45,108 bases of DNA from a virus. The translations under genes and the position numbers were made by a program. Each line of letters opens with the position of its first letter. Position 1 is the first letter of the stretch. Of this stretch, positions 5,169-25,452 are shown in pieces. The notes beneath the pieces are model-generated. The model was not told the origin of the DNA. It searched no databases and worked only from the letters and a program-made list of their open reading frames with translations. The stretch lies in UHGV virus genome UHGV-0324336, one strand, 5' to 3'.

Positions 5169-5169
5169 G

Positions 5170-9463: not shown

Positions 9464-10843
9464 ATGTGGAAAGATAAGTATATTTGTCATAAATGCGTGA
9501 ACGATAAATATGTCATGCAGCATATAATAAAAACCGGAAATAATGTTCGGATTTGCTCTTACTGCAAAAGGAAGCGTAAAAACATCCACCTCAAATATAT
9601 TCTCAAGATGATGAATGAGGTTTTTGAGTACTACTATGATATGTATGAGGATATCTATGATTCCGGGCGCGGTGATAGCGCGCAGGATGTCATCTGCGGA
9701 GAACTGGGCGTCGAATGGGACGTAGCTGAAGATATTTATGAATTTCTTTGTGATGAATATAATCCGCATAACGATTATGACTACATCCGGTATAATGATG
9801 GGTTTGTTTATCGGCACATAAATCACTATAGCGGAGAGCTTGCGCATACCTGGAGTAAAGCCACTGACTCCCTTATGAAAGAAACACGATATTTTAACCG
9901 TGAAGTTAATGATTTCCTGGATTCACTTTTCAGTGATATCGATAAACTAAAAAACAGAGACAGTAATTCACCGATAAAAACTCTGACTGATGAGGTTCAT
10001 CTTTTTCGTGCAAGGGTCTTTGAGGACCAAGAGGAAGTAAAGCAAGCCTTGGAGCAGCCCGAGAAAAATTTTGGACCTCCCCCATCAACTTTGGCTCGGT
10101 CGGGCCGTATGAACGCACAGGGGATTTCAGTATTTTACGGTGCAACCTCAGTGAATTTGGCAATTGCTGAAGTAAGGCCGCCCGTCGGCAGTATTGTAGT
10201 AACGGCCTGTTTTGTACCGTTACGCGAGCTAAAAGTGCTGGACATTTCTGCCCTTGACTCGATTAGTTTCGGCTCAGGTAGTAAATTTGATCCTCAGACT
10301 CGCAAAACCAGTGAGCGCGCGATTTTTTTCAGTACGCTTTCCCGTAAGTTGACGCTTCCTACTTTTGGAAAAAGGCAGGACAGTGATTACCTCATCACCC
10401 AAGTGGTTGCCGATTACCTAGGTGACCGAAATAAATTTAAGCTTGATGGTGTCAGCTTTAAATCTACCCAGGTAGATGCCAACGGTGAGGATGCTGAGAT
10501 AGGATATAATGTCGTTCTGTTTAATAAGTCTTCCGGCGTCAGGCATGCCGCAGATAAATCTCGCCGATATAATGTTGAGATGTATGAACACATCGAAGAT
10601 GACCAGTATGCTTTTGTTCCGGAAATTCAGTTAATAGTTGAGGAACAAATAAAACCGAGACATATGGGTTCATTTTCATCCTCGCATGACAAAAATGATG
10701 CACTACTGTTGAAAACCAACAGTATGACTTATCATAAAATTACTGGTGTAAAATACCAAACAAGTGAGACGGAGATTCATCAGGGAGATAGTGTTCGAAA
10801 ACAAGAGCCACCTCAGAAATTCGATGACCTGATGGACTTCTGA
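9464..10843 (+). CDS. RES-domain protein (putative NAD+-targeting effector) with N-terminal CxxC…CxxC zinc-ribbon domain
   Basis: Candidate RES triad R215 (GRMN), E236 (LAIAEV), S331 (DGVSFKS) with intervening YG; N-terminal C8-x2-C11…C31-x2-C34; AT-rich codon usage. Confidence 0.65.
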   Translation: MWKDKYICHKCVNDKYVMQHIIKTGNNVRICSYCKRKRKNIHLKYILKMMNEVFEYYYDMYEDIYDSGRGDSAQDVICGELGVEWDVAEDIYEFLCDEYNPHNDYDYIRYNDGFVYRHINHYSGELAHTWSKATDSLMKETRYFNREVNDFLDSLFSDIDKLKNRDSNSPIKTLTDEVHLFRARVFEDQEEVKQALEQPEKNFGPPPSTLARSGRMNAQGISVFYGATSVNLAIAEVRPPVGSIVVTACFVPLRELKVLDISALDSISFGSGSKFDPQTRKTSERAIFFSTLSRKLTLPTFGKRQDSDYLITQVVADYLGDRNKFKLDGVSFKSTQVDANGEDAEIGYNVVLFNKSSGVRHAADKSRRYNVEMYEHIEDDQYAFVPEIQLIVEEQIKPRHMGSFSSSHDKNDALLLKTNSMTYHKITGVKYQTSETEIHQGDSVRKQEPPQKFDDLMDF

Positions 10844-11257
10844 TCATCCGTTATATCAGGGTAAACTATTATTAAAGATGATGTGAGGGCAGTTAAGGAA
10901 GGAATTCACCCTGTATCGCCTGTATCGCGTTACTGGCGTCCCTTGATACCAAGCGGGCAGATTGGTGAACAGGCACGTCTGTTTGAGCGAGGAGCTGGCT
11001 TTGTAGAATGCCTCAAGGGATAAAAACACCTTATTTACGCAACTTACTGCGAAAGGACCATGGCTTTGCTGGCTTCGGATACGTTGCTGAGTTCCTCAGC
11101 CACCTTAAGTAACCGGCGTTGTGTTTGATGATAGGATTGTTAGTATGGAATATGAGAATTACCTCTTGTATTGTATAACACTTCGGCCCCATATCAATAC
11201 CAGTAACTCTTAATCTTTCAAAGCCATGTGTCAGATCAAGTCACGACTAATGCAAAT

Positions 11258-11288
11258 AATAGACAGATATCATTCTAATCTGTCTATT
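11258..11288 (-). terminator. perfect 11-bp inverted repeat hairpin between convergent genes
   Basis: AATAGACAGAT-(9 nt)-ATCTGTCTATT, 17 nt 3' of the HExxH gene stop; AT-rich, no clean U-tract. Confidence 0.35.
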
Positions 11289-11304
11289 ATTATGTCAAAA
11301 TTAT

Positions 11305-12228
11305 TTAGTGTAATTCCGAAAGGAGCCTAGTAACAAACTCTTTATATGTTGTAGCTTTATAATCAAGCTTACGGTTTTCCTGTCTCATCACCGCGATGAG
11401 AAGACAAGCTGTAAAACACCAGAAGGGCGATGAATCTGAAAGGTTGTACCCCCCTATCATTGTTTGAATCCTTACTGCTATAGATGGATACTCTTCACCA
11501 CCCCATTTATCGATATCTGATGTTAAAGCGTGTATAGTAAAGGCGGCAAGTGTTATCCCCATTGCTCGTTTTTGCATGACCTCTTCATAGGTATGCCCAG
11601 CTTTTTTAGCATAGACTCCGACGCCCTTAGTTATATATTCACGAGCCCAAGAGTCACAGGCTAACTCTTCTTCATCCTTCTCTTGGGGATTTTCATGTTT
11701 TTTTTCTTCGGCTCGTGCTTGAACATGTTTATACTCATGAAGTATAGAAAAAGACAATGCTAATGCTACTAGATCAAAAACAGCCTGTTCTTGAATATTA
11801 TTCAAACTATCTCGCGCATCTGTTGGAAAAGGAATATCTTGAGGCCATGTAATATCAGCCGTATTCGCAACGCTTAGCAAAGACTTTGAAATATACAAAT
11901 GCTGTTTATAATTTAGTTCAAATTGGCCACGTTCTTCATCAGATTCTAAAGCCGACTCTAACGTCACACCTAGTAAGCATGCTTTTACTAGGGCTGGAGC
12001 ATATGTCTCAATCGTAAACCATGTACTAAACCCAAATAACCAAAAGAAATCGATAGTTTTAGAGTCAAACTCGATGCGCCTACTAGTTGCATTCATTGTT
12101 GATCCTAGGGCATCCTCTGCAAGTTCGACCGTGTGTTTATAGCTCTTCCAGGTCTGACAAAGTTCATCAGCATTCTCAGGAACAGCCCCTCTTAGGAGGT
12201 TTAAAACTATAGTATCTAGTGATGGCAT
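11305..12228 (-). CDS. putative zinc metallopeptidase (HExxH), possibly Lit-like phage-exclusion protease
   Basis: Single HEYKH motif at residues 164-168 of 307 aa; size and motif position close to e14 Lit (297 aa, HExxH ~160-164, recalled); AT-rich. Confidence 0.5.
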   Translation of the reverse strand: MPSLDTIVLNLLRGAVPENADELCQTWKSYKHTVELAEDALGSTMNATSRRIEFDSKTIDFFWLFGFSTWFTIETYAPALVKACLLGVTLESALESDEERGQFELNYKQHLYISKSLLSVANTADITWPQDIPFPTDARDSLNNIQEQAVFDLVALALSFSILHEYKHVQARAEEKKHENPQEKDEEELACDSWAREYITKGVGVYAKKAGHTYEEVMQKRAMGITLAAFTIHALTSDIDKWGGEEYPSIAVRIQTMIGGYNLSDSSPFWCFTACLLIAVMRQENRKLDYKATTYKEFVTRLLSELH

Positions 12229-12605
12229 AAAACTGACTCCTTATTCTACTTGTTATAAAACAACGATGTTATGTTAATCACCTATTTTAGATGTTCATAG
12301 AATTCTTAAGACATCAATCATAGCAAAATAAAAAGCATATAGTGCTATATTAAACCACTAGCAAAAATGAATATAAAATGTGGTTTTGTCCGTTCCAGCC
12401 ACAAGCGATCAAGGGAGAGGAATGAGGTTTTCAATGAGCGTATAGTAAGCATTTTCATTACAACTTAGAAGCATCGAGTAAATATCATTACTAATCCAAT
12501 ATGACTATGATGAACTAAGCTTCAGATTTATAATTATCATCATAACTAGAAGCTAGGTTGCTGAAAAGGAAGTCAATAGCATCCCTTAACTTAAAACCTA
12601 TGATT

Positions 12606-13139
12606 CTATATTCCTTTTTTATAATCTCTAGACAAAAAATCAAACAGGACTTTACGTTTGTAAAGTAACGTAACCCTTACATTTTCAAGATCTGACTCCT
12701 TAATATCAGGTTTGCCATCATAATAATTTCTCCGCATTGCTTTTAAATAATCACCGTAGTCTCTTAAAGCAACTGATGTGTCAGTTAAACCTAAAAGCAA
12801 AAGCTTCGACTCTGCAACTGTCAAGCTTTTAAAATTGTCAAATAAATCTAATTTTGTTTTATTTAACTCCTCTTGCCTTTCTCTGGTAAGATCCAATCCC
12901 TTTTGTTCCTTATTTCTAACCCATTCAATTATCAAAGCCCAATAGCGTAAGGATATATGTGTCATATCCTCAATTTGAGTGCTTACAGATTCTAATGAAT
13001 CATAATAGCGACGACTTTTATCTTTATCAAATTCATGTTTGTGATTCATTTTTGAAATAATAAATGTACCTGTCAGCGTTATTATACCACCAAATCCAAT
13101 CTTCACAGCCGTATCAACAACTTCCACCCAGGTTGTCAT
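12606..13139 (-). CDS. hypothetical membrane-anchored protein (177 aa)
   Basis: N-terminal TM helix (VKIGFGGIITLTGTFIIS) then charged helical domain; AT-rich island gene with own upstream gap. Confidence 0.55.
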   Translation of the reverse strand: MTTWVEVVDTAVKIGFGGIITLTGTFIISKMNHKHEFDKDKSRRYYDSLESVSTQIEDMTHISLRYWALIIEWVRNKEQKGLDLTRERQEELNKTKLDLFDNFKSLTVAESKLLLLGLTDTSVALRDYGDYLKAMRRNYYDGKPDIKESDLENVRVTLLYKRKVLFDFLSRDYKKGI

Positions 13140-13424
13140 CCAAAACTACCTCTTGATGTTATTAAACACTCTACTAAACCAATGCATTGGAAACTAATTA
13201 TTTCTTACGCAAATACATATTCTAATATTATGTCTTCTACTAGAACCAAAATCAATCATTAGTGAAAGTGAAATAAAAGCGACATGGGCATAATGCTGCT
13301 GAGTATTGATCAGCAATTAGTTATGGATGAACGTCCTCTCTTGGCACAAAGCGGACAACCACGCTAGCTCTACCCTGTGCCACAAAATGTCAATTTGCAT
13401 CTGAACTAATGCACTTTAATCTCG

Positions 13425-13847
13425 TCACTTCAATAAATACCGAACATCCCCCTGATAAAACGACAATATGCGCTGCATAACTTCACTCTTCCGGCACTCG
13501 CGACAGATTATGTTCTGACGCCTGTCGTAGCGACGTATTTCTCCGTCAGGTAATGACCAGATAAGGTCCGGATCAACCGCAGATGGTTTCTTCAGCTTTG
13601 CCCTTGAGAGCTTTTTACGGGCATTTTGCCAGTCCTTACGCGCCTGTTCAGACGGGAATAACCCGTAACCAGAGTTGTATACATCGCCGCTGGCAACCAG
13701 CTCTCTTGCGAGAACGCTCATCAGATATCTTGTCGCACCTGTTTTGACTTCCAGTTGCCGTAACGTCTCACGCCCACTCTGGCGTACGAGTTCAACAACC
13801 TGCCCTTTAATTTTTTCTCGCTCTTCTTGTGTAAAAACTTTTGCCAC
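13425..13847 (-). CDS. hypothetical protein (140 aa) downstream of replication initiator
   Basis: ORF track; possible winged-helix segment; occupies the position of a helicase loader but has no Walker motifs. Confidence 0.45.
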   Translation of the reverse strand: MAKVFTQEEREKIKGQVVELVRQSGRETLRQLEVKTGATRYLMSVLARELVASGDVYNSGYGLFPSEQARKDWQNARKKLSRAKLKKPSAVDPDLIWSLPDGEIRRYDRRQNIICRECRKSEVMQRILSFYQGDVRYLLK

Positions 13848-13887
13848 AAGTCCTCCTGAAAATTACCTCATGACCAGAAATCAACAC

Positions 13888-14964
13888 TTACCCCCTGAAG
13901 CCCGGTGGAATTTCGGTATCCGGTTCAGAAATATGATTCACACAACGCTGGTTGTTCGTGCCGCTTACCGGGAGCAGCCAGGGGTTTTCAAAATTCCGGT
14001 CCGGTCCAAAAAACGTCGTTGCTCGCTGAACAAATTCCGTTCCCGTTTTCCCGGTAGCCGCAAGGTATCTTGCGTAACGCCTCACGCCATCCAGCATGGC
14101 CTCTGGTGACACCCCCTCGCGTAATCTGGCCTTCCAAGCACTGAAAGCGGATTTCTTCGGGTTTGCCCCAGCACGCAACGGGTATTCCCGCCAGACCTGT
14201 TCGAACACATCCGGATAATCCACTCGTCCCACAGGCTGCCCGGTGTTTTCCGGGACTACCCGATCGGCTTCCCGCTGAATGGCGGAATCGGCTTCAGGCT
14301 GCTGCAGTTGGTGTGATTGCTCCGGCCTTGCGGTCATCACCTGCTGCACAGCGCCCGAATCGGCTTTCAGCGCATACGCTGAATCGGCTTCCGGTGTCGT
14401 GCCTGCTGGCTGACCAAGATTGACGGTCTGAACATCCCCTGCCTGGTTCGTGGCGTTTTTTACGCCATGGACCATAGTGTTTTGATCTTCTTGATCTGTA
14501 TCTTTATCTGTATCTTTATCTGTCGTGACTCGTCGTGACATGTGCGTGACATTTCGTGACGCACCGTGACAATCGCCATTTTGTTCCCGCTTTCTTTCCC
14601 TCTCTCGCTGCGCCCTCTTGCGCTCTGCAGGAGATTTTGCGGTTTGCGAAATATTGCCGTTGTCCTCTTTAAGAACCTGGCGTTTTTCCCATCCAGTGAT
14701 TAAATCACCATCAAGTACCCGCCCCTGCATCGTCTGCAAAATTGAATCAATTACCTCTTCTGTCACGTCGAGCGCACTTGCCAAATCTTCTGTCGTGACA
14801 TCAATGTGACCTCGCGTGACATTTCGTGACGCGCTCACCAGGAGGTGGATATACACTGCCATCACTGTTGCAATTGGCTGCCCTGACACCCTAGCAATTG
14901 TTCGCCACTTAGGGTCATTTGGCATGTCATGCCATAATCTGAGCCAAGCGTTAGCCATACTCAC
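13888..14964 (-). CDS. replication initiator / replisome organiser (lambda O-like role)
   Basis: Position after cro/YdaT module; N-terminal HTH-like region; two iteron clusters inside the ORF as in lambdoid ori-within-O. Confidence 0.65.
   Translation of the reverse strand: MSMANAWLRLWHDMPNDPKWRTIARVSGQPIATVMAVYIHLLVSASRNVTRGHIDVTTEDLASALDVTEEVIDSILQTMQGRVLDGDLITGWEKRQVLKEDNGNISQTAKSPAERKRAQRERERKREQNGDCHGASRNVTHMSRRVTTDKDTDKDTDQEDQNTMVHGVKNATNQAGDVQTVNLGQPAGTTPEADSAYALKADSGAVQQVMTARPEQSHQLQQPEADSAIQREADRVVPENTGQPVGRVDYPDVFEQVWREYPLRAGANPKKSAFSAWKARLREGVSPEAMLDGVRRYARYLAATGKTGTEFVQRATTFFGPDRNFENPWLLPVSGTNNQRCVNHISEPDTEIPPGFRG
14524..14570. repeat. iteron cluster 1 (5 x CGTGAC at 10-11 bp spacing), candidate ori
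   Basis: CGTGAC at 14524, 14534, 14545, 14555, 14565; preceded by TATCTTTATCTG tandem repeat (14491-14523). Confidence 0.6.
14794..14830. repeat. iteron cluster 2 (4 x (C/T)GTGAC at ~10 bp spacing)
   Basis: CGTGAC at 14794, TGTGAC 14805, CGTGAC 14815, CGTGAC 14825. Confidence 0.5.
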
Positions 14965-15029
14965 CTCTTCTGATACCGAATCTTTTTACTCACGAGTTGC
15001 CGGAAGCGATTCGATATGGCTATTGTCAG

Positions 15030-15455
15030 TCAATGTACTGCCACAGCATTTCCTGCCGGGCCACCACGGTTCATCTGATTGAAACCGGCGATTGCCACTG
15101 CGACAAAATCATCAGCGTCTCTCACCAATCGCTCCCGCGTCTCCACCAGCTCCCGAAAATAAGCTGAACTGTGGCTGCGCATTCTGGCCACCAGCAAAGG
15201 TGGCATTGCCTTTTCGATCGCTGGTAACAACGCCTGAATTTTTTCAACTGCATCAGGGGTGTCTTTCTCTACCCAGCGGAAAATTTTCTGGGTATTGCGA
15301 GCCAGGGCTTCCGGATGGCTGTCGTCATACAGTTCAGGAAACGTCATACCCAACTCAAAATAAGCCTGGGTTATTCCAGCTGCTGGAACTTTTTCGCCAT
15401 CAGGACGCGCCCAGGCATTCATCGCCATGCGGATGTGTTCATGCTTGATTTTCAT
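15030..15455 (-). CDS. YdaT-family protein (Rac YdaT-like; proposed CII-like regulator/toxin)
   Basis: 141 aa, starts MKIKHEHIRMAMNAWA…; ATGA-coupled to the cro-like gene as ydaS-ydaT are in Rac (recalled). Confidence 0.55.
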   Translation of the reverse strand: MKIKHEHIRMAMNAWARPDGEKVPAAGITQAYFELGMTFPELYDDSHPEALARNTQKIFRWVEKDTPDAVEKIQALLPAIEKAMPPLLVARMRSHSSAYFRELVETRERLVRDADDFVAVAIAGFNQMNRGGPAGNAVAVH

Positions 15456-15682
15456 GAATCCCCCCCTTGGTTAGAAGGCGGATTATGATCAGAACCGGGA
15501 ATGACAACCGTCGGTATGTGTAACTCATATTTGAGCGCCCCGGCAGTGACTGCCTGAATTAGCAACGCCCATTTCCACGGAACCTCTTCCCCCCACATGC
15601 TGACTGTGGTTTTTGACGTTCCTAGAGCTGCGGCTGTTTTAACAACTCCGCCAAAATAGCCTAATACTTCTGATTTTTTCAT
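15452..15682 (-). CDS. Cro/YdaS-like HTH regulator (76 aa)
   Basis: MKKSEVLGYFGGVVKTAAALGTSKTTVSMW… HTH; GGAG 6 nt upstream of ATG at 15682; divergent from cI. Confidence 0.7.
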   Translation of the reverse strand: MKKSEVLGYFGGVVKTAAALGTSKTTVSMWGEEVPWKWALLIQAVTAGALKYELHIPTVVIPGSDHNPPSNQGGDS

Positions 15683-15710
15683 AAGTCGCTCCATAAAACT
15701 GAACGCCAAA

Positions 15711-15773
15711 ATTTTAATAATCAAAACCAAAGAAAGTCAAGAAACAAAACCATCTGTGTTTTAAAATCAAAAC
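15711..15773. promoter_or_regulatory. OR-like operator region between cro and cI
   Basis: ATTTTAATAATCAAAAC (15711-15727) and GTTTTAAAATCAAAAC (15758-15773, abutting cI ATG): inverted half-sites GTTTT/AAAAC. Confidence 0.45.
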
Positions 15774-16400
15774 ATGAGCAAGCAAACAATATCTGAACGC
15801 ATAACCCAACGTATGCATGCGCTAAACCTGAAAGGCAAAGACCTTGTCAATGCCACTGGCGCATCAAAAGGCTCCGTAAGTCAATGGATGAACGGTGGAG
15901 GAGCGCCGTCCTCGCGTTACATAAGTTCACTGGCAAAGATATTGAAAGTAAACGAAAATTGGCTTCTTAATGGAGGAGAGTTAAATACAGGTGATTCGCT
16001 TGATCTATCTTTACCGCCGATAAAAACGGTTCCGCTACTATCAGCAAGCTGGAGTGATTATATGAAAAATTCCTCAATAACCTCTTGTGTGCAGCTTGTC
16101 GGAGAAATCCCGGCCAATACCTTTGCAGTTGTTCTAGAGAGTGACAGTATGTCAACATCTGGTGGGGGAGTTTCCATCCCAAATGGTTCAACAGTTTTTG
16201 TTGATCCCGATCGAACCGTACAACCAGGAAATATTGTCCTTGCCTTACCCAAAGGGACCACAACACCTGTCATTCGTAAACTGGAGATAGAAGGGCCGGA
16301 TATTCTTTTAGTCCCCACGAATCCTCGCTACCCTTCAATTATGCTGGATGATCTATCTTGCATATTGGGCGTATGCTTTAAAATTCAACAAGATATTTAA
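15774..16400 (+). CDS. CI-like prophage repressor (HTH_XRE + S24 LexA-type autopeptidase)
   Basis: N-terminal HTH (ATGASKGSVSQWMNG); C-terminal S24 signature with Ser in ESDSMS and Lys in VIRKL. Confidence 0.85.
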   Translation: MSKQTISERITQRMHALNLKGKDLVNATGASKGSVSQWMNGGGAPSSRYISSLAKILKVNENWLLNGGELNTGDSLDLSLPPIKTVPLLSASWSDYMKNSSITSCVQLVGEIPANTFAVVLESDSMSTSGGGVSIPNGSTVFVDPDRTVQPGNIVLALPKGTTTPVIRKLEIEGPDILLVPTNPRYPSIMLDDLSCILGVCFKIQQDI

Positions 16401-16466
16401 CCAACCTCATCTATTTGATTAACTGTATGCCATCGTGGTGATGGCTTAACAGCTGCCTGCTTAAAA

Positions 16467-16512
16467 TGTTTTGATAAAAAACATTGACCTGAAAAGTTCA
16501 TTTTTCTAAGCT
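16467..16512 (+). promoter_or_regulatory. OL/pL-like operator-promoter for the ydfA-dicB early operon
   Basis: Palindrome ATGTTTTgataaAAAACAT (16467-16485) resembling the OR sites, overlapping -35 TTGACC (16484-16489), 17-nt spacer, -10 TAAGCT (16507-16512). Confidence 0.4.
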
Positions 16513-16691
16513 TCATTCATTCCCTCACCCCACCCCACAGAATGCAGGGCAATACTTCGAGTTACCAGGCAGTGGTCAGGGGTTAAGTAGCCAGCCCGAG
16601 GCGTAAGAACATGACGGCAGGGTTCAACTTTAATAACTATGCAGCAGGTTTTTGTTCCGCTACCCCGGCGTTAAGGGGAAATGAGGTCAAC

Positions 16692-16847
16692 ATGGATACT
16701 ATCGATCTTGGCAACAACGAATCTCTGGTGTACGGCGTGTTTCCCAACCAGGACGGCACATTCACCGCGATGACGTATACCAAAAGCAAAACGTTTAAAA
16801 CCGAAAATGGTGCCCGTCGCTGGCTGGAAAGAAACTCAGGTGAGTGA
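16692..16847 (+). CDS. ydfA: YdfA-like small protein (51 aa)
   Basis: MDTIDLGNNESLVYGVFPNQDGTFTAMTYTK…; GAGG 5 nt upstream; first gene of dicB-type operon by synteny. Confidence 0.6.
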   Translation: MDTIDLGNNESLVYGVFPNQDGTFTAMTYTKSKTFKTENGARRWLERNSGE

Positions 16848-16848
16848 T

Positions 16849-16977
16849 ATGGATTTCGACACAATCATGAAAAAGGCTTACGAAGAATACTTCGAAGGCC
16901 TTGCCGAAGGCGAAGAAGCTCTCAGCTTCAGTGAGTTTAAACAGGCGCTTTCCAGCTCGGCAAAATCTAACGGCTGA
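16849..16977 (+). CDS. ydfB: YdfB-like small protein (42 aa)
   Basis: Translated by hand (below ORF-track cutoff): MDFDTIMKKAYEEYFEGLAEGEEALSFSEFKQALSSSAKSNG; size and position as ydfB. Confidence 0.5.
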   Translation: MDFDTIMKKAYEEYFEGLAEGEEALSFSEFKQALSSSAKSNG

Positions 16978-17006
16978 TAAGCGAAGCAGCACCGCGAGGA
17001 ATCAGT

Positions 17007-17225
17007 ATGCAGAAACGAGAACCCGTCATCATCGCGCCAGACTATACCGATGATGAACTTTATGAGTGGATGCGCCAGAAAATTAATGCAGCGCAGGATC
17101 TGAAATGGGCCAATGAAGCCAGGGCTAAGCAGGCTGAAAATCTGTCCGCTCTGGAGCAGGATATCACCAGGCTGGAAAAAGCAGCGGCATTAAGCATTGC
17201 CAGAATGATTACATACCCGCGTTAA
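17007..17225 (+). CDS. ydfC: YdfC-like protein (72 aa)
   Basis: ORF track; AGGA 6 nt upstream; 72 aa as K-12 YdfC; synteny ydfA-ydfB-ydfC-dicF-dicB. Confidence 0.55.
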   Translation: MQKREPVIIAPDYTDDELYEWMRQKINAAQDLKWANEARAKQAENLSALEQDITRLEKAAALSIARMITYPR

Positions 17226-17565
17226 TAGCTAACCAACGAAGCTAAGGTTGGTAATTAAGGAGTTCTCCACGGGTGAGGTGGAGTGCGTGCGCCGGACACG
17301 GGTGAGCATCCGGCACTGACAGTTTACTGAAAGGATATTTCCCTGAAAAGTCAGACCATAACGCGAAAGCGCACGGCGAGGTAGCTGGTTCATAGATAGC
17401 CTGTCGTTAAATTATCGTCGACCGTGCGCTTCCGGTTGTGGCACTCCGCGAAATGGCGCGGCGGTAAGTATGGCGGGGTTATTCCTTCACCGTTGAGGAC
17501 ACCGGGTTGTCAGGTTGACCATACGCTTAAGTGACAACCCCGCTGCAACGCCCTCTGTTATCAAT

Positions 17566-17623
17566 TTTCTGGTGACGTTTGGCGGTATCAGTTTTACTCC
17601 GTGACTGCTCTGCCGCCATTTTT
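17566..17623 (+). ncRNA. dicF: DicF small regulatory RNA (ftsZ-targeting)
   Basis: TTTCTGGTGACGTTTGGCGGTATCAGTTTTACTCCGTGACTGCTCTGCCGCC + T-run matches recalled 53-nt DicF; located between ydfC and dicB as in Qin. Confidence 0.75.
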
Positions 17624-17792
17624 AAAGTGAATTTTGTGATGCGGTGAATGCGGCTAAGCGCACGCGGAACAGTTAAAACCAAAAACAGTGTTATGGGTGG
17701 ATTCTCTGTATCCGGCGTTAATTGTTAACTGGTTAACGTCACCTGGAGGCACCAGGCACCGCATCACAAAACTCATTGTTGAGGGCGCGATA

Positions 17793-17981
17793 ATGAAAAC
17801 GTTATTACCAAACGTTAATACGTCTGAAGGTTGTTTTGAAATTGGTGTCACTATCAGTAATCCTGTATTTACTGAAGATGCCATTAACAAAAGAAAACAC
17901 GAACGGGAGTTATTAAATAAAGTATGCATTGTTTCAGTGCTGGCCCGTTTACGTCTGATGCCAAAAGGATGTGCACAATGA
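17793..17981 (+). CDS. dicB: DicB cell-division inhibitor (62 aa)
   Basis: MKTLLPNVNTSEGCFEIGVTISNPVFTEDAINKRKHERELLNKVCIVSVLARLRLMPKGCAQ; 62 aa, downstream of DicF. Confidence 0.8.
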   Translation: MKTLLPNVNTSEGCFEIGVTISNPVFTEDAINKRKHERELLNKVCIVSVLARLRLMPKGCAQ

Positions 17982-18169
17982 ATCCAGTATTTGCACTTAT
18001 TCTGACGGTTTTTCTTGTTTCCGGAGAGCCAGTTGATATTGCAGTCAGTGTTCACAGAACAATGCAGGAATGTATGGCAGCAGCAACCGAACAGAAAATT
18101 CCAGGCAACTGTTATCCGGTCGATAAAGTTATTCACCAGGATAATAACGAAATCCCGGCAGGATTTTAA
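17978..18169 (+). CDS. ydfD: YdfD-like small membrane protein (63 aa)
   Basis: MNPVFALILTVFLVSGEPVDIA… with N-terminal TM; ATGA overlap with dicB stop. Confidence 0.7.
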   Translation: MNPVFALILTVFLVSGEPVDIAVSVHRTMQECMAAATEQKIPGNCYPVDKVIHQDNNEIPAGF

Positions 18170-18262
18170 AACAGCACCGTAATAAATATCCAGTTTCATT
18201 CTTATATGTCAGCAATGGCAGAGATTTGTTCACCCTTAAATCTGTGATGAGGTTTACCAATA

Positions 18263-20704
18263 ATGAGCACTGATAAAGAAGAATTTGCACTATATTGCGA
18301 AGCAAAAAATGACAAAGTAAGAAAACGCCTAGGAATTAAAGGTGGTTTTTACTGGACTACAGCAAAAAAATTATCTGTTGCAATCTCCCGCTGCATTACC
18401 GCAATGGATGACAACGATTATGATGAAGACGACTTTAAAAAACCCGTCCGCGTCAATTTGCCCGTTGTTGACGACCTTCCGCCAGAAGGCGTGTTTGATA
18501 CTGAATTCTGCAACCGCTATGAAAAAGGCGGGAAAGATGGCATCACAATGACATTTATCGGCCCTTCCCCCTCTGTTCAGGACAAACCAGCCAGCACTGA
18601 CAATACCAACATCAACGGCGAAGACATGACTGAGATTGAGGAGAGCATGCTTCTGCCTGTCTCCGGTCAGGAACTGCCCATTCGTTGGCTTGCTCAACAC
18701 GGCAGCGAAAAACCAGTAACGCACGTTTCACGCGACGAACTCCAGGCATTACACATTGCACGGGCTGAAGAACTACCGGCTGTTACTGCCCTGGCTATTT
18801 CGCATAAAACCAGTCTGCTCGACTCGCTGGAGATTCGCGACCTCCACAAACTGGTTCGTGACACTGACAAAGTTTTCCCTAATCCTGGTAATTCAGACCT
18901 GGGACTAATAACTGCTTTTTTCGAAGCATACCTGGACGCTGACTACACTGATCGGGGTCTGCTGACAAAAGAGTGGATGAAAGGAAATCGTGTTTCACGC
19001 ATCACCCGCACGGCTTCCGGTGCTAATGCTGGCGGTGGGAACAAAACCGATCGCAATCCGAATTTAGTACACACCCTCGACACACTGGATGTGGAGATTG
19101 CAGCAGCCACACTTCCGATGGATTTTAATATTTATGAAATTCCGGGCAGCGTTTATCGTCGCGCAAAAGAAGTAGTCCTGAACAAAGAAAGTCCGTTCAA
19201 AGAATGGTCCGCAGCACTTCGTGCAACCCCGGGTATTCTGGACTATTCCCGCGCCGCTATTTTTGCACTTATCCGAAGCGCACACCCTGAATTTTATCAC
19301 TACCCGGGACGCCTTCAGGGGTATATCAACGCCTATTTGACGGAAACTGATCACGAGAACCCCAGCAAGGAAACTCTCACAGCTGCCCGGCATACGCCGG
19401 AAAAAGATATCCTGGAAGAAATTAACCGCGAGGTGGTTACTGAGCGTGAAACAGAAGAAGAAAAACCACAACCATCTGACGCAATGGCAGGTGAACAGGC
19501 AACAACTGAAACAATGGAACCGGATACAACTGAACATGGCCAGAACGCGCAGTCGCTGGATGCTCAGTCGCAGGTGAGTTCCGCTAACCAAGTAAAAGTC
19601 ACCGCTGACGAAGTAAACAAAATTATGCAGGCAGCCAATATCAGCCAGCCTGACGCCGATAAGTTACTTGCTGTATCGCGTGGTGAATTTGTTGAGGGGA
19701 TTAGCGACCCTAATGATCCGAAATGGGTCAAGGGGATCCAGACTCGCGATTCTGTGAACCAGAACCAGCATGAATCGGAACGGAACGACCAAAAAGCGGA
19801 ACAAAACAGCCCAAATGCGTTACAAAACGAGCCAGAAACGAAACAATCCGAACCAGTAGCGCAACAGGAACCGGAAAAAGTCTGCACCGCCTGCGGTCAG
19901 AGCGGTGGCGGCAACTGCCCTGATTGTGGCGCGGTGATGGGCGACGCAACATACCAGGAAACATTCGATGAAGAGAATCAGGTTGAAGTTCAGGAAAATG
20001 ATCCGGAGGAAATGGAAGGCGCTGAACATCCACACAAGGAGAACCCTGGCGGCAATCAGCATCACGCCAGCGATAATAAAACTGGCGAGGCGACAGATCC
20101 CTTAATTAAGGTGAATGGTCATCATAAGCTCACATCCACCAGCAGAGCGGGGATTCATCTGATGATCGACCTTGAAACCATGGGAAAAAATCCCGATGCC
20201 CCAATTATCTCAATAGGCGCAATATTTTTCGATCCACAAACCGGAGATATGGGACCGGAATTTAGCAAGACCATCGATCTGGATACTGCTGGCGGAGTCA
20301 TTGATCGTGACGTCATTAAATGGTGGCTAAAGCAATCACGTGAAGCGCAGTCTGCCATTATGACCGATGAAATCCCGTTAGATGATGCACTACTGCAATT
20401 GCGGGAATTTATCGACGAAAACTCCGGTGAATTTTTTGTTCAGGTCTGGGGTAATGGGGCCAACTTCGACAACGTGATTTTACGCCGTTCATACGAACGA
20501 CAGGGTATCCCCTGCCCGTGGCGCTACTGCAACGATCGCGATGTACGCACAATCGTTGAGCTGGGGAAAGCCATAGACTTCGATGCCAGAACTGCTATCC
20601 CATTCGAAGGTGAGCGCCATAATGCACTTGATGACGCTCGTTACCAGGCAAAATACGTTTCAGCTATCTGGCAAAAACTGATCCCGAGTCAGGCTGATTT
20701 TTAA
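18263..20704 (+). CDS. RecE/YdfE-family protein with C-terminal DEDDh 3'-5' exonuclease domain (813 aa)
   Basis: C-terminal DnaQ-like motifs: DLETMG (Exo I), NGANFD (Exo II), HNALDDARY (Exo III); acidic low-complexity middle; CTACG…CPDCG zinc-ribbon-like element. Confidence 0.65.
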   Translation: MSTDKEEFALYCEAKNDKVRKRLGIKGGFYWTTAKKLSVAISRCITAMDDNDYDEDDFKKPVRVNLPVVDDLPPEGVFDTEFCNRYEKGGKDGITMTFIGPSPSVQDKPASTDNTNINGEDMTEIEESMLLPVSGQELPIRWLAQHGSEKPVTHVSRDELQALHIARAEELPAVTALAISHKTSLLDSLEIRDLHKLVRDTDKVFPNPGNSDLGLITAFFEAYLDADYTDRGLLTKEWMKGNRVSRITRTASGANAGGGNKTDRNPNLVHTLDTLDVEIAAATLPMDFNIYEIPGSVYRRAKEVVLNKESPFKEWSAALRATPGILDYSRAAIFALIRSAHPEFYHYPGRLQGYINAYLTETDHENPSKETLTAARHTPEKDILEEINREVVTERETEEEKPQPSDAMAGEQATTETMEPDTTEHGQNAQSLDAQSQVSSANQVKVTADEVNKIMQAANISQPDADKLLAVSRGEFVEGISDPNDPKWVKGIQTRDSVNQNQHESERNDQKAEQNSPNALQNEPETKQSEPVAQQEPEKVCTACGQSGGGNCPDCGAVMGDATYQETFDEENQVEVQENDPEEMEGAEHPHKENPGGNQHHASDNKTGEATDPLIKVNGHHKLTSTSRAGIHLMIDLETMGKNPDAPIISIGAIFFDPQTGDMGPEFSKTIDLDTAGGVIDRDVIKWWLKQSREAQSAIMTDEIPLDDALLQLREFIDENSGEFFVQVWGNGANFDNVILRRSYERQGIPCPWRYCNDRDVRTIVELGKAIDFDARTAIPFEGERHNALDDARYQAKYVSAIWQKLIPSQADF

Positions 20705-20762
20705 TGTTCAACCCTAATTGCCGCTAACCGTATATAGTTAGCGGCGGTTATGAGATATAGCT

Positions 20763-20966
20763 ATGAGCAGCTTATTTTTAACCGAAGATGAATTGCTAAT
20801 ATTAACGGGCTGCAAATATGCAAGCCACCAGCGAAAATGGCTAATGGAAAACGGGCTTCCGTTCTATACCAATCGTAGTGGCAAACCGATTGTCAGCCGG
20901 AATCTATTTACCTGCAATAAAACTTTACCACCACGCGAGGTAGAGCCGAATTTTGGTGCGATCTGA
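20763..20966 (+). CDS. DUF4224-like small protein in excisionase position
   Basis: 67 aa MSSLFLTEDELLILTGCKYASHQRKWLMENGLPF…; stop overlaps int ATG (TGATG). Confidence 0.5.
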   Translation: MSSLFLTEDELLILTGCKYASHQRKWLMENGLPFYTNRSGKPIVSRNLFTCNKTLPPREVEPNFGAI

Positions 20967-21289
20967 TGGGAAGACGAAGGAAAAATCCTGAACACGAAAA
21001 ATTACCTCCAAATGTATACCCAAATAAATATAGTTATGTATGGAAACCAACATCCAGAGAATCTGTCACACTAACCGCCATCAAGGATGGTTTAGCTGCT
21101 TTATGGAAAAAGTATGAGGAAACTGTAAATAATCGCGATCGTGCAATGACATTCGGTCGCTTGTGGGAAAAATTCCTCGCCAGCGCCTATTACAGTGACC
21201 TTAGACCGATGATACAGAGTCGAAAAATCAAAGAGTTAAAAATTTTTCTTGGAATAAATGTCTTAAAATCGTACACGAAAAATCAATGA
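20966..21289 (+). pseudogene. int: integrase N-terminal fragment (arm-binding domain only; truncated tyrosine recombinase)
   Basis: MGRRRKNPEHEKLPPNVY… aligns with lambda Int N-terminus (MGRRRSHERRDLPPNLY…) but ORF stops after 107 aa; no catalytic domain (R..HxxR..Y) in any frame before the next gene. Confidence 0.75.
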
Positions 21290-22936: not shown

Positions 22937-23218
22937 TCACATCCAGCCACGAAGTTGATGCTCAACAGCAACCACGTATTCATCGAATAATGACGATATT
23001 TGCGAATCATTAATGATGCGCACGTTTACAAAATATCCGTCTTCCTTAACACATACCGGTTCGCCATCTTCAGTCAGTTCTCCGGTTTCTTTGTACACGT
23101 TACCTATCACGTCAATAAGAATATCATCCTGCATCGACTCGTCATCATAATAGCCAATACTCTCCATAAAGGCCGAAAAGTCGGCCCTGTCGGCAAATTT
23201 GAGTGTTAAATCTTTCAT
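22937..23218 (-). CDS. small acidic protein translationally coupled to stf (possible fibre assembly factor)
   Basis: 93 aa; start overlaps stf stop (TAATG); 9-nt gap to next fibre gene; not lambda Tfa. Confidence 0.45.
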   Translation of the reverse strand: MKDLTLKFADRADFSAFMESIGYYDDESMQDDILIDVIGNVYKETGELTEDGEPVCVKEDGYFVNVRIINDSQISSLFDEYVVAVEHQLRGWM

Positions 23219-25452
23219 TAGATTGACTCCCCCACCTGAGCATCAGTCAATGCCTTGTGCCATATTCTGAAATTCCTGACATGACCAAATAAATGACGTA
23301 ACCCGGCTGTAGTCTGACCTCCAATACGGATAATTGCGGTGTTCTGAATACAGGACCATGTGGTTTTTGTTTCGCTGGATATATGCCCGTTACTTACTGA
23401 GCACGTAGACTGCTCTGACTTTACACGCATCCCCATAACCATTTTTTCAAGCGATGCGTTTTCGTTTACCCGTCTGCTAGCTCCTCCAATATCGCAATAA
23501 GGAAATCCGTCGTAATCTGTTGAACGACCGAAGCCAAGAATAATAGCCGCTCCGGTTTGATGACCGCCGGTATCAAAAACACGTGGCGCTGCATTTGGCG
23601 TTTTATACCAGTTCTTATGTACCTCACAAAGAACCGTAAAAGGAAGATTATAAAGATTATTCTTAATTGGAACTGTAACTATATCGCTTGCGCGGGTCGC
23701 CGCCGTCGCTCCTGATATAATAAAAGATGATACACAAGGCCCATCTTCTACTTGTGGGGTGGCCAGATAAATATAGTCACCAGATACGGTTGCCCCGCTC
23801 TGCTTAGGAGAATACTGTATCTGAGAGCCTATTTTTAACTCCCCATCAATTGCCTGAATTGTTGCCTCTGCAAAAATCCATCCGGTAGCTTCGTCCTTTC
23901 TGACTCTCGCTGTAATCCTTGAGGCAGCACCGCCTGTCATATTAATTTCAAGCGTTTGTGTATCAATATACGCATCACCAAGAAAAGTTGTTGCGCTACC
24001 GTCATATTTATCAAACCGGATACGCAACCTTACCTGCAGTTCTGTTTTAAAACGACATGAGGTTGTCACGTGTTTATTATCGCCTGAGACATCAACTGAC
24101 TTTGTTGCAGCAATTGATGCCATATTAATGGCTGAGGTTTGCCCAATCAGAGAATCGTTGCAGACAAACTTTCCATAGGTAAAACCAAAATTATCCGTCC
24201 CTGTTTCGGGCACATCCATATTTGACGATCGCCCCCAACTGGCAGGGCTTTCCGAATTGAGCATGTAGTTTGTTCTTTGCCCCTCAATAAGCAGGCCATC
24301 ACGTTCAAATCGTGGCTCGTCAATGGCAGCCTCTGTCAGCACACCAGATTTATTAATATAGGTTGCTTTCGATGCACGTTTAAACTTAACAATCTTGTCG
24401 CCAGGCATCGTTATTTCGTCGTCACCAATAACAATCTTTTTATATGATGGCGAAAAGCCCGTAATCATATCCAGTGAATCGTTAAACGGTATCCACACAT
24501 CAGGCAGCGGCTGTAAGACATATTTATACGGATCTGCTGCCTGGCTTGCATACTCTCTGGCTGCGTCTTCACTTGCTTTTGCAGCGGTCTGGCTTGCAGC
24601 GGATGCTTTCGCCGAGTTGGCCGCCGCAGTTTCGCTGGCTTTGGCATTCGTTTCGCTGGTCTTCGCTGCCGTCTGGCTGGACTTTGCGTTAGTTTCACTC
24701 GTCTTCGCAGCTTTCTGGCTGTTAGCCGCAGCAGTTGCTGATCCAGCTGCTGAAGTCGCAGAACCGGCTGCCGCGCTCTCGCTTTGGGCTGCTGCAACCT
24801 GGCTGTTTTTTGCCGCAGTTTCACTGGCTTTGGCATTCGTTTCGCTGGTTTTCGCTGCCGTCTGGCTGGACTTTGCGTTGGTTTCGCTCGTCTTTGCGGC
24901 TGTCTCGCTATTTTTCGCGTTGGTTTCTGATTTTTTGGCTGCTGTCGCGGAGTTTTCTGATGCAGTCTGTGAGGTCGCTGCCGCCTGTGCACTATTAGCT
25001 GCATTCGTTTCTGAGGTTTTCGCCGCGTTCTTCGATGATGCCGCTGCAGTTTCGGATTTCTTTGCCGCCGCTGCGCTCTGAGAGGCGGCTTCGGCGTTGC
25101 GTGCCGCTTCTTCCACCATTTCCTCAAAACGACGCAATGCCTCCGGCATGACATCATCTTCCGTCATGGCACCGAGAAAATCATTCAGCGTACCTGGTCT
25201 GGAACCTTCATAGACGGTAATGGTTCCGGCATGTGAAGGCGGAAAACCTTCAACAAGCAGGATAACGCTGTACTGGCCATACTCAACATCCATGCTGTAA
25301 CGCCCGGCTTCATCCGGATTTTCAGAGGCCACCGTGTTCACCAGTACCGTGGTGCTGTTACGCTTTGCCTTCAGTTGAATAGTGCAGTTCTGTATTGGTT
25401 TTCCCGCACCATCTTTCAGCACACCTGAGATTTTTACTGCTGCCATATCCAC
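23218..25452 (-). CDS. stf: side tail fibre Stf (lambda-like N-terminus, non-lambda C-terminal LamG/ConA-like lectin domain)
   Basis: N-terminus MAVKISGVLKDGAGKPIQNCTIQLKA… matches lambda Stf; Ala/Ser/Thr-rich helical repeats; C-terminal …LFGHVRNFRIWHKALTDAQV typical of LamG-type domains. Confidence 0.8.
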   Translation of the reverse strand: MDMAAVKISGVLKDGAGKPIQNCTIQLKAKRNSTTVLVNTVASENPDEAGRYSMDVEYGQYSVILLVEGFPPSHAGTITVYEGSRPGTLNDFLGAMTEDDVMPEALRRFEEMVEEAARNAEAASQSAAAAKKSETAAASSKNAAKTSETNAANSAQAAATSQTASENSATAAKKSETNAKNSETAAKTSETNAKSSQTAAKTSETNAKASETAAKNSQVAAAQSESAAAGSATSAAGSATAAANSQKAAKTSETNAKSSQTAAKTSETNAKASETAAANSAKASAASQTAAKASEDAAREYASQAADPYKYVLQPLPDVWIPFNDSLDMITGFSPSYKKIVIGDDEITMPGDKIVKFKRASKATYINKSGVLTEAAIDEPRFERDGLLIEGQRTNYMLNSESPASWGRSSNMDVPETGTDNFGFTYGKFVCNDSLIGQTSAINMASIAATKSVDVSGDNKHVTTSCRFKTELQVRLRIRFDKYDGSATTFLGDAYIDTQTLEINMTGGAASRITARVRKDEATGWIFAEATIQAIDGELKIGSQIQYSPKQSGATVSGDYIYLATPQVEDGPCVSSFIISGATAATRASDIVTVPIKNNLYNLPFTVLCEVHKNWYKTPNAAPRVFDTGGHQTGAAIILGFGRSTDYDGFPYCDIGGASRRVNENASLEKMVMGMRVKSEQSTCSVSNGHISSETKTTWSCIQNTAIIRIGGQTTAGLRHLFGHVRNFRIWHKALTDAQVGESI
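24623..24900. repeat. two ~89-bp near-identical direct repeats 189 bp apart inside stf
   Basis: GCCGCAGTTTCGCTGGCTTTGGCATTCGTTTCGCTGG… at 24623-24711 and 24812-24900; encode repeated AAKTSETNAKxS units. Confidence 0.7.

Follow-up and report, generated by a model that had tools for sequence, protein, structure and literature searches.

An 813-aa protein encoded in the early region of a viral genome joins a front part resembling that of RecE to a nuclease domain of another kind, with no annealase gene at its side. What such a protein might be, whether a recombination exonuclease, the intact form of a K-12 pseudogene or an enzyme with another role, is the question raised by this locus. The window analysed here is the whole 45,108-nt stretch of UHGV virus genome UHGV-0324336, and all coordinates refer to it. 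Judged from its sequence, the protein is a domain-swapped sibling of RecE, not RecE. It probably acts in the lytic phase of lambdoid prophages, as a 3'-5' exonuclease on DNA that needs no annealase.

Make-up of the exonuclease gene and its neighbourhood

The open reading frame lies where a sequence-only reading had placed it, on the + strand at 18263-20704 with an ATG start and 813 codons, and its product is 100% identical to a protein annotated by PGAP as '3'-5' exonuclease' (WP_000102141.1 in NZ_CP038791). Its parts and neighbours are as follows.

17567..17618, +, DicF sRNA, part of the same early-left operon, upstream of the exonuclease gene (Rfam RF00039, 73.4 bits versus a gathering score of 48)
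17793..18169, +, dicB and ydfD (DUF1482), directly upstream (Pfam PF05358 and PF07358; PGAP annotation of prophage L001)
18249..18252, +, Shine-Dalgarno sequence GAGG, 10 nt 5' of the ATG of the 813-aa frame (direct sequence reading)
18263..20704, +, exonuclease gene, ATG start, 813 aa, made up of an N-terminal scaffold of RecE type, an acidic linker and a DEDDh exonuclease (open reading frame list, Pfam)
18263..18562, +, N-terminal alpha/beta head of RecE-N type, aa 1-100 (AF2 with alignment, pLDDT 81-97)
18431..18829, +, match to PF06630 (Exonuc_VIII), aa 57-189 (Pfam, 125.3 bits, cutoff 25, E 3.8e-36)
18953..19432, +, conserved helical middle domain, aa 231-390 (pLDDT 80-97; conservation in the alignment)
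19445..20140, +, disordered acidic linker of ~230 aa, aa 395-626 (pLDDT <50; D+E 20%, K+R 7%)
19673..19732, +, short conserved motif in the linker, aa 471-490, VSRGEFVEGISDPNDPKWVK (an island of conservation, the rest of the linker being variable)
19883..19927, +, putative Cys4 knuckle, C541-x2-C544 ... C552-x2-C555 (direct sequence reading; low model confidence)
20156..20671, +, DEDDh 3'-5' exonuclease domain, aa 632-803 (PF16473; catalytic D636, E638, D736, H786, D791)
20720..20745, +, 9-bp hairpin GCCGCTAAC-N8-GTTAGCGGC, 15 nt past the stop codon, without a T tract (direct reading)
20763..20966, +, gene in the excisionase position, directly after the exonuclease gene (DUF4224, Pfam PF13986; PHROG excisionase families)
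20966..21289, +, truncated integrase frame, 107 aa (homology to int of L001, which is of intact length, stops at 21204)

The annotation of dicB and ydfD comes from prophage L001, which is 99.8% identical. The gene in the xis position directly follows the exonuclease gene, as had been proposed, and matches both DUF4224 and excisionase PHROGs. The truncated integrase frame lacks a Pfam integrase domain, and the contiguous form of the truncation junction was absent from the complete E. coli genomes and phage records searched.

The sequence-only reading had proposed a C-terminal DnaQ-like domain, to be abandoned if no DEDD-family profile matched. The Pfam search it called for gave PF16473 (Rv2179c-like) at 222.9 bits versus a gathering score of 27 (E 3e-66), spanning positions 2-177 of the 177 in the profile; the E-values for PF16473 and PF06630 are both far beyond chance. 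All of the quoted motifs are present, namely IDLETMG (D636, E638), NGANFD (D736) and HNALDDA (H786, D791), and the five catalytic residues fall in invariant columns common to T4 DexA, an EcD-like E. coli protein and gp51 of phage PY54. For modelling, single-sequence AF2 gave a pLDDT of 35.5 and was not usable, and the alignment-backed model was used instead; homologue diversity was drawn from a representative search, the first big-database search having been swamped by near-identical E. coli copies. The modelled domain has a DnaQ/RNase-T-like fold resembling solved PF16473 members, with T4 DexA as the closest solved structure in Foldseek and Rv2179c also matched. The domain is under strong purifying selection, with a dN/dS of 0.10-0.11, versus about 0.41 for the linker (linker compared with Tritos and mEp460).

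How far the label 'RecE-family' applies depends on the part of the protein. It holds for the non-catalytic part, which carries PF06630 and aligns by BLASTP over aa 58-615 with RecE 50-591 at 59% identity; K-12 recE DNA is 92% identical to window stretch 18601-19054. The label fails for the nuclease, which is absent: tblastn with RecE aa 588-866 found no match, the BLASTP alignment stops at RecE 591, and PF12684, which Pfam detects in K-12 RecE, is missing from the 813-aa protein. The NCBIfam RecE equivalog model NF007259 scored 947.7 bits versus a cutoff of 1269, over model positions 1-603 of 877.

Within the non-catalytic part, the first 57 residues of the head diverge from K-12 RecE (28% identity) and the helical region at aa 120-250 belongs to the RecE-type scaffold. 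The middle domain is the conservation peak of a 56-sequence alignment. It occurs in nearly all long family representatives, regardless of which head or C-terminal domain accompanies it, and is 37% identical to aa 245-371 of the Tritos protein. The acidic linker and the CxxC...CxxC element described earlier are both there, the four cysteines being read directly from the sequence. K-12 RecE is identical at the core of the linker motif, GISDPNDPKWVKGIQTRD, and keeps the knuckle as CNACGQTGGDNCPDC. Structure and profile searches found no structural relative of the scaffold. We know of no function for the N-terminal 560-aa part of RecE.

The proposal that this gene is the intact form of K-12 ydfE does not survive for the gene itself, as BLASTP shows no similarity to YdfE, but it points to the right family. 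Between the window and Qin, ydfA to ydfD are 96.3% identical; homology then ends at 18254, 8 bp before the ATG. Both ydfE and the 813-aa gene occupy the slot directly after ydfD, each beginning 93 nt past its stop codon. K-12 YdfE aa 1-256 is 99% identical to the N-terminus of an 823-aa exonuclease of Tritos/mEp460 type, a sister allele whose head is unrelated to that of the 813-aa protein, and an IS2-associated deletion in K-12 took the rest of the Tritos-type gene together with xis and the start of int. This settles the identity of the pseudogene ydfE as the first 256 aa of a sister DEDDh exonuclease.

Annealases in the window and in related loci

A missing RecT- or Bet-like partner had been claimed for this locus, with an overlooked annealase in the flanks as the way in which the claim could fail. 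Every early-region frame of at least 90 aa was searched with Pfam and PHROGs, and none of them encoded an annealase. tblastn of K-12 RecT against the window gave nothing below E = 1, and HMM and phmmer searches of all six-frame window ORFs with RecT, Bet and Rad52-like profiles were likewise empty. The positive controls (lambda, Rac-type loci and locus L177) all scored. For the families covered, the absence is thus upheld and an overlooked flanking annealase is rejected. Erf, Sak4 and Gp2.5 types were covered within the window, by Pfam and PHROGs; RecT, Bet and Rad52-like types were also covered beyond it.

The same pattern extends to related loci. None of 69 DEDDh-type sister loci had RecT, Bet, Gam or lambda Exo, and neither RecT nor Bet was found within about 7 kb in any of 61 cross-species loci (20 fused, 39 stand-alone and 2 intermediate). 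By contrast with these DEDDh-type loci, recT is present in 6/6 close RecE-type loci, with a 4-nt overlap, and two further loci (L091 and L095) pair a DUF3799 PD-(D/E)XK gene with RecT. Annealase presence therefore tracks nuclease type. By sequence, the 813-aa gene would appear to have neither mark of a SynExo, an adjacent annealing protein and a 5'-3' dsDNA exonuclease; its sole nuclease domain has the DEDDh fold, and 3'-5' degradation is the rule for every characterised member of that fold.

Some family members carry a third kind of C-terminal domain on the scaffold, which may be a Rad52-like annealase. In 7/7 of them the Rad52-like match was sub-threshold by Pfam. Aligned by hhalign with an approximate RAD52 sequence, this domain gave an E of 0.005 at low probability, and a PDB profile search was negative.

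Probable function and competing readings

At least 80% of the exonuclease gene is present in 1243 of 5,426 complete E. coli genomes (23%). The gene is thus already catalogued in databases and very common in E. coli prophages, and the literature searched contained no study of a RecE-scaffold/DEDDh fusion. As roughly one complete E. coli genome in four encodes the protein, and several inducible phages do too, an unstudied nuclease activity would be switched on at induction in many E. coli strains.

The function that we favour can be laid out as a series of steps. The gene would be co-transcribed with dicF, dicB and ydfD from the repressor-controlled early-left promoter, so that induction or infection would bring about its synthesis, while the quiescent lysogen would not make the enzyme. 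Lytic-phase expression seems probable because the gene lies inside a dicB-type operon, and consensus scans of the stretch from ydfD to the ATG, which are weak and did no better than on shuffled sequence, gave no promoter or terminator that convinces. The enzyme would remove nucleotides from free 3'-OH ends by two-metal DEDDh chemistry, most probably on DNA, whether single strands, 3' tails or duplex ends. The DNA preference is suggested by the nearest studied relatives, DexA (23%) and EcD (37%), both being DNA exonucleases, and by the scaffold otherwise carrying a dsDNA-end nuclease. The enzyme would act without an annealase and so would not be a RecET/Red-type two-component recombinase. The scaffold probably directs it to RecE's destination, DNA ends or some partner; that the destination is shared is a guess. 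Candidate purposes are the trimming of ends, the breakdown of DNA from the host or a competitor so that its nucleotides can be salvaged, as T4 DexA does, and the clearing of 3'-ended defence intermediates.

Four other readings compete with this one. An RNA exonuclease like Rv2179c, which is reportedly an exoribonuclease, could shorten phage or host transcripts from their 3' ends and, for example, mature or turn over co-transcribed DicF or host mRNAs during induction. RNase T and similar DEDDh enzymes also cut DNA, so that the fold alone does not discriminate between DNA and RNA. The DNA activity of the EcD-like and DexA relatives, the rank of DexA as the top Foldseek PDB match and the joining of the scaffold elsewhere to a dsDNA exonuclease nevertheless make an RNA substrate unlikely; RNase III and RNase E are the enzymes credited with processing DicF. 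An enzyme equivalent to RecE or lambda Exo, working with host RecA/RecFOR or with an annealase of an unrecognised family, is improbable. It would fit the occupied exo slot just upstream of xis-int and the ~560 aa of scaffold in common with RecE, and the possible Rad52-like domain on the same scaffold in some members is a weak tie to recombination. However, a 3'-5' exonuclease yields 5' overhangs, not the 3' tails used by RecT, Red-beta and RecA (PMC11611040), neither Pfam nor PHROGs recognise an annealase in the window, and RecT occurs only beside PD-(D/E)XK siblings. Decay, with the gene as a non-functional fusion remnant of a cryptic prophage, is very improbable. The integrase of the window is truncated, a frameshift splits the gene in one phage record and K-12 retains only a fragment of the sister allele, but the catalytic domain has the low dN/dS given above with all five catalytic residues intact, and most copies are full length (exactly 813 aa in 45/80 retrieved sister loci; at least 784 aa in about 60/69 DEDDh-type loci). 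The gene is also found in Tritos and mEp460, and the fusion in several Enterobacterales genera.

The remaining reading, a prophage defence nuclease of HREX/EcD type that shields the lysogen by destroying the 5hmC DNA of superinfecting T-even phages, is unlikely. EcD, a stand-alone E. coli homologue of DexA, cuts 5hmC DNA only and guards against T4 even at leaky expression (Kang et al. 2025, PMC12153337). The DEDDh domain here is 37% identical to putative EcD, and the prophage carries further exclusion genes (Lit-like, RES-domain and hok/sok). Against this, the positions of W152 and D169, the 5hmC readers proposed for DexA (PMC12153337), are C756 and K769 here and W and E in the EcD-like protein, with K769 less securely assigned than C756 given a 4-residue alignment gap near D169. 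The HREX signature is thus not seen. Neither is the EcD-type loss at the tetramer position, where DexA D90 is kept as D708 and EcD has Ala; the equivalent of DexA S87 is P705. The gene also sits within a repressed early-left operon and is retained by free-living temperate phages, and PADLOC on the prophage returned only a weak, generic Cas-associated DEDDh match (E 1e-4). The TONDO/ISG20 proteins described in a preprint, which act against RNA phages, are of another DEDDh clade and under 500 aa (PMC13344964), and so offer an analogy only.

Beyond the lytic-phase exonuclease that we favour, a broader reading that we regard as speculative and unlikely would make the RecE-type scaffold a delivery platform with interchangeable lambdoid phage effectors, and the DEDDh version an unrecognised, annealase-independent early function at DNA ends. 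The platform would consist of the middle domain, the acidic linker and the GISDPxDPKW motif. Its effectors would be a PD-(D/E)XK nuclease of 5'-3' polarity that comes with RecT, a DEDDh nuclease of 3'-5' polarity that has no annealase and, possibly, an annealase of Rad52 type beside a Gp157-family gene. The DEDDh version might, for instance, counter defence systems or RecBCD by clearing 3'-ended DNA, whether 3' tails or the ssDNA and cDNA that retron- or DRT-type systems produce; the acidic linker might then be a DNA mimic or a partner-binding tether.

A scaffold kept under selection while the polarity of its nuclease was swapped and the annealase dropped argues for an autonomous, RecT-independent scaffold role, for example targeting or partner binding, and the RecE-type and DEDDh-type genes form a natural comparison set for finding it. 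RecE/RecT is a recombineering workhorse. If the enzyme counters host defence or discriminates DNA modifications as DexA and EcD do, it would be a widespread new player in phage-host conflict; if it only scavenges DNA, it would be an ordinary accessory nuclease.

Comparison with known exonucleases

The founder of PF16473 is the Mycobacterium tuberculosis protein Rv2179c (PDB 4HEC), a cellular protein that stands alone and is only distantly related; phmmer does not recover it at E <=0.01. The closest stand-alone relatives of the domain are exonucleases of prophages and phages, such as gp51 of Yersinia phage PY54 and the exonuclease of Salmonella phage F1055 (53-57% identity); exonucleases of this type, like the 813-aa protein, lack equivalents of the DexA W and D. 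Stand-alone PF16473 genes of Enterobacterales prophages often lie ~1.1 kb upstream of an integrase. The stand-alone exonucleases differ in that scaffold and linker are both absent, and their loci contain no N-module gene at all. T4 DexA (PDB 8KEL/8KEN), a 3'-5' DNA exonuclease (PMC12153337), shares both its Pfam family and its PHROG with the domain here, is its top sequence as well as Foldseek match among solved structures and aligns at all five DEDDh residues. It differs in coming from a lytic phage, in standing alone at 227 aa and in its additional loops, and the identity is only 23-28%. EcD/HREX of E. coli (GenBank HAK9828821.1) likewise has a PF16473 domain with an intact pentad. It was represented by a 189-aa EcD-like ORF, identified by an exact match to the EcD forward primer and by A78 at the DexA D90 position, in agreement with the published residue, rather than from a deposited sequence. 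EcD differs in standing alone and in its W, E and Ala at the 5hmC-reading and tetramer positions, where the 813-aa protein has C, K and Asp.

Closer in context is the 823-aa exonuclease of Tritos and mEp460, which has the same operon position and neighbours, a PF16473 domain and, again, no annealase. The two phages share the layout cI, ydfABC, DicF, dicB, ydfD, exonuclease, xis, int, and are viable with it. Their enzyme matches the 813-aa protein at 81-86% identity in the linker and at 94-96% in the DEDDh domain, whereas its first ~245 aa are unrelated and give no PF06630 match; of the part before the linker, only aa 270-383 align, at 37%. RecE (exonuclease VIII) of the K-12 Rac prophage occupies the same early-left operon slot, upstream of xis-int, and has PF06630, the middle domain, the GISDPNDPKW motif, the Cys4 knuckle and the acidic linker in common with the 813-aa protein. 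It differs in having a recT partner, whereas no recT follows the exonuclease gene here, and in its C-terminal PD-(D/E)XK 5'-3' nuclease (PF12684; PDB 3H4R), in whose place the 813-aa protein carries the DEDDh 3'-5' domain.

Architecture and operon position of the exonuclease gene

The ORF listing confirmed the ORF of 813 amino acids (aa) that the sequence-only reading had placed at 18263-20704, and the Pfam search proposed in that reading returned two domains above threshold: PF06630 ('Enterobacterial exodeoxyribonuclease VIII', 125 bits) on aa 57-189 and PF16473 ('3'-5' exoribonuclease Rv2179c-like', 222.9 bits, E 3e-66) on aa 632-803. The second match, together with the DEDDh catalytic residues D636/E638 in IDLETMG, D736 in NGANFD and H786/D791 in HNALDDA, bears out a DnaQ-like 3'-5' exonuclease at the C-terminus, and the CxxC…CxxC element noted from the sequence consists of C541/C544 and C552/C555. 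AlphaFold, run with a family alignment of 56 sequences (a single-sequence model was useless), was confident at aa 1-100, 120-250, 260-390 and 630-810 and predicted disorder for the linker, aa 395-626. A short motif, GISDPNDPKW (aa 471-490; 19673-19732), is kept within this otherwise variable, acidic segment, and the copy in K-12 RecE is identical; it has the look of a linear motif for binding a putative partner.

Features of the window
1902-2318, minus: cspA-type thermoregulator 5' UTR (Rfam)
4940-5246, minus: four tRNA genes (Rfam), just downstream of the Q antiterminator gene
8811-8985, minus: sok antitoxin RNA (Rfam), with hokD nearby
9464-10843, plus: RES-domain protein with a HEPN/RES N-terminal domain (PGAP: RES family NAD+ phosphorylase)
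11305-12228, minus: Lit-like peptidase U49 exclusion protein (PADLOC Lit, E 1e-18)
12606-13139, minus: 177-aa ORF between the Lit-like and Ren-like/DUF977 genes (PGAP counterpart hypothetical)
15774-16400: cI-like repressor, early-left operon
17567-17618: DicF sRNA (Rfam, 73 bits)
18263..20704, plus: exonuclease gene, ATG start, Shine-Dalgarno GAGG 10 nt upstream of the ATG
20720-20745: perfect 9-bp hairpin GCCGCTAAC-N8-GTTAGCGGC, 15 nt past the exonuclease stop and 18 nt before xis, no T tract
20763-20966: xis, a DUF4224/excisionase-PHROG gene (Pfam, PHROGs)
From 20966: truncated integrase ORF (int'), 107 aa, following xis
23218-25452, minus: 744-aa tail-fibre protein with long near-identical Ala/Ser/Thr-rich repeats (…KTSETNAKSSQTAAKTSETNAKASETAA…)

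The exonuclease gene is the final large gene of the early-left operon, which runs cI-like repressor, ydfA, ydfB, ydfC, DicF, dicB, ydfD, exonuclease gene, xis, int'; the gene directly after it is thus the xis-position gene that had been described there. Consensus scans, which performed no better than on shuffled sequence, found no convincing promoter or terminator in the ydfD-to-ATG interval, and the hairpin past the stop could be a candidate RNA processing or stability element. Positions 4089-21204 match, with 99.8% identity, a lambdoid prophage of E. coli PF9285 located at tRNA-Ser/mtfA; there PGAP names the identical protein '3'-5' exonuclease'. The match to the full-length int of this prophage stops at 21204 and minus-strand tail-fibre accessory genes come after the truncated int; the window order (lysis, Q, replication, cI, exonuclease, xis, int', then tail fibres, tail, head, terminase) is therefore that of an excised phage genome, here without the int catalytic part and the attP/b region. 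Among complete E. coli genomes and phage records, none has the int'/tail-fibre junction in contiguous form, and two genomes carry ~900 bp more at this point. Elsewhere in the window, the RES and Lit-like genes lie side by side, with hok/sok on one side and the replication genes on the other, as a small candidate defence island; the RES protein matched no PADLOC model, and the 177-aa ORF no Pfam, PHROG or PADLOC family.

Distribution, the sister allele and ydfE

Of 5426 complete E. coli genomes, 1243 carry at least 80% of the gene and 4745 carry at least a part. The exact protein has NCBI and UniRef entries in which the PF06630+PF16473 architecture is precomputed. Public databases list this PF16473 exonuclease on a RecE N-terminal scaffold under a sensible name; we found no paper on such a gene. 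Among the 80 IMG/VR sister loci, 45 have a gene product of exactly 813 aa; of the 69 that are of the DEDDh type, about 60 encode at least 784 aa. The fusion also occurs in Enterobacter, Kluyvera, Citrobacter, Kosakonia, Phytobacter and Atlantibacter (domain identity 53-65%). Phage vB_EcoM-606R7 carries the same gene (8001-10444, 99.3% identical), split by a frameshift into two CDS; this record contains host flanks (tRNA-Ser, mtfA, yersiniabactin genes) and therefore represents a prophage region rather than a packaged genome.

In phages Tritos and mEp460, the corresponding slot is occupied by an exonuclease of 823 aa. Its linker is 81-86% and its DEDDh domain 94-96% identical to those of the window protein, whereas the first ~245 aa are unrelated and only aa 270-383 align (37%); the Tritos protein has PF16473 and lacks PF06630. 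Against these two alleles, dN/dS was 0.10-0.11 in the DEDDh domain and ~0.41 in the linker.

The sequence-only reading had suggested that the gene might be the intact form of K-12 ydfE, which holds for the family and fails for the gene itself. K-12 YdfE (306 aa) has no similarity to the window protein, and DNA homology to the K-12 Qin prophage (96.3%, ydfA through ydfD) ends at 18254, 8 bp before the ATG. Instead, YdfE aa 1-256 (Qin locus, 7079-7999) are 99% identical to aa 1-256 of the Tritos exonuclease (Tritos locus, 4641-7112). K-12 DNA follows that of Tritos as far as aa 256 and picks up again inside int, such that an IS2-associated deletion took the remainder of the exonuclease (aa 257-823), xis and the first part of intQ. 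By sequence comparison, ydfE is therefore a remnant of the 823-aa sister allele, which settles its identity; no paper was found stating that ydfE is the start of an 823-aa DEDDh exonuclease.

Annealases and the scaffold family

The absence of a recT/bet-like annealase, proposed from the sequence, held up throughout. Pfam and PHROGs placed no annealase family in any ORF of the window's early region, tblastn gave no RecT match in the window, and these searches turned up none overlooked in the flanks. Across 80 scaffold-sharing loci, RecT, Bet, Gam and lambda Exo were found within about 7 kb of 0 of 69 DEDDh-type genes, whereas recT overlapped by 4 nt in all six loci with a close RecE-type nuclease. 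At loci L091 and L095, a DUF3799 PD-(D/E)XK gene is followed by RecT and Lar. HMM and phmmer searches over all six-frame ORFs from 147 sources, in which positive controls scored, gave the same pattern, and 61 loci from different species had no RecT or Bet. The annealase thus accompanies the PD-(D/E)XK domain but in no case the DEDDh domain, as would fit two nucleases of opposite polarity.

When 1.84 billion representative proteins were scanned in full with aa 1-616, only 265 clusters were recovered. Nearly all of the 80 long representatives have the middle domain (aa 231-390); their heads are of the RecE type, the YdfE type or another kind, and their C-termini are PD-(D/E)XK (23), DEDDh (15) or unrecognised (42). 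At least seven clusters (P0129, P0179, P0199, P0200, P0203, P0230 and P0267) share a third C-terminal domain of ~150 aa with the motif YG.TPY...GEA.KKSLTDA.KKALS.LGFSADI.LGLYD. Pfam Rad52_Rad22 was the top family in 7 of 7 members, below threshold (best E 0.003, 18 bits versus 20.3); hhalign with an approximate RAD52 query aligned the signature at E 0.005 with low probability, and a PDB profile search was negative. One such gene (locus L177, 5001-7445) occupies the same slot, followed by a Sipho_Gp157 gene. These proteins may be scaffold-annealase fusions, a lead rather than a result.

Function and comparison with known nucleases

The data best support a 3'-5' exonuclease that sits on a RecE scaffold, needs no annealase and would act in the lytic phase. 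The operon position suggests that it would be expressed only on induction, the scaffold would do the targeting, and the substrate, by analogy with DexA, EcD and the RecE context, would be DNA. T4 DexA (8KEL/8KEN), a 3'-5' DNA exonuclease (Kang et al. 2025, PMC12153337), is the only solved relative by sequence (E 3e-5). Foldseek against the PDB likewise ranked DexA first (E 4e-7), followed by RNase T, Orn and REXO2, and BFVD matches were phage DexA-like exonucleases, in both cases over the C-terminal domain only. An RNA exonuclease heads the rivals and is unlikely.

An EcD-like defence nuclease, second among them, is improbable. EcD, a stand-alone E. coli DexA homologue, cleaves DNA only if it contains 5hmC and gives protection from T4; in DexA, W152 and D169 read 5hmC and D90 is required for the tetramer (PMC12153337). 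We took as putative EcD a 189-aa ORF with an exact forward-primer match and, as published, Ala78 at the D90 position. It is 37% identical to the DEDDh domain of the window protein; both belong to PF16473 with DexA and PY54 gp51, and an alignment with DexA, putative EcD and gp51 shows no variation at the five catalytic residues. The window protein, however, has C756, K769 and D708 at the W152, D169 and D90 positions (K769 less certainly, given an alignment gap near D169), and is therefore, as aligned, not an HREX-type 5hmC reader by the criteria of PMC12153337. The analysis establishes the architecture, the integrity of the catalytic residues, purifying selection, a wide distribution and the lack of an annealase. 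A recombination exonuclease with an unknown partner, third among the rivals, is likewise improbable, and a dead remnant, the last, is barely credible. Carried by about 23% of complete E. coli genomes, the unstudied nuclease would be worth a simple assay.

The closest domain relatives are stand-alone temperate phage or prophage exonucleases of 180-240 aa (PY54 gp51, 53%; Salmonella phage F1055, 57%). In other Enterobacterales, stand-alone DEDDh genes lie ~1.1 kb upstream of an integrase in 16 of 34 loci and downstream of recurrent ORFs of 179 aa (13 loci) and 274 aa (8 loci). These ORFs may resemble K-12 YfdR (HD 5'-nucleotidase) and YfdQ; if they do, this would hint at nucleotide salvage.

The term 'RecE-family' in the sequence-only reading stands for the N-terminal region and linker, with 59% BLASTP identity to K-12 RecE over aa 58-615 (RecE 50-591) and no match beyond. 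It does not extend to the nuclease: K-12 RecE joins PF06630 to a C-terminal PD-(D/E)XK domain (PF12684; PDB 3H4R) that the window protein lacks, and the NCBIfam RecE equivalog scored 947.7 bits against a cutoff of 1269, over model positions 1-603 of 877 only. By these comparisons, the window protein is a domain-swapped sibling of RecE, not RecE. The RecE nuclease works without its N-terminal region, yet that region boosts linear-linear recombination (PMC11611040); the domain swap singles out this unexplained module as an independent unit.
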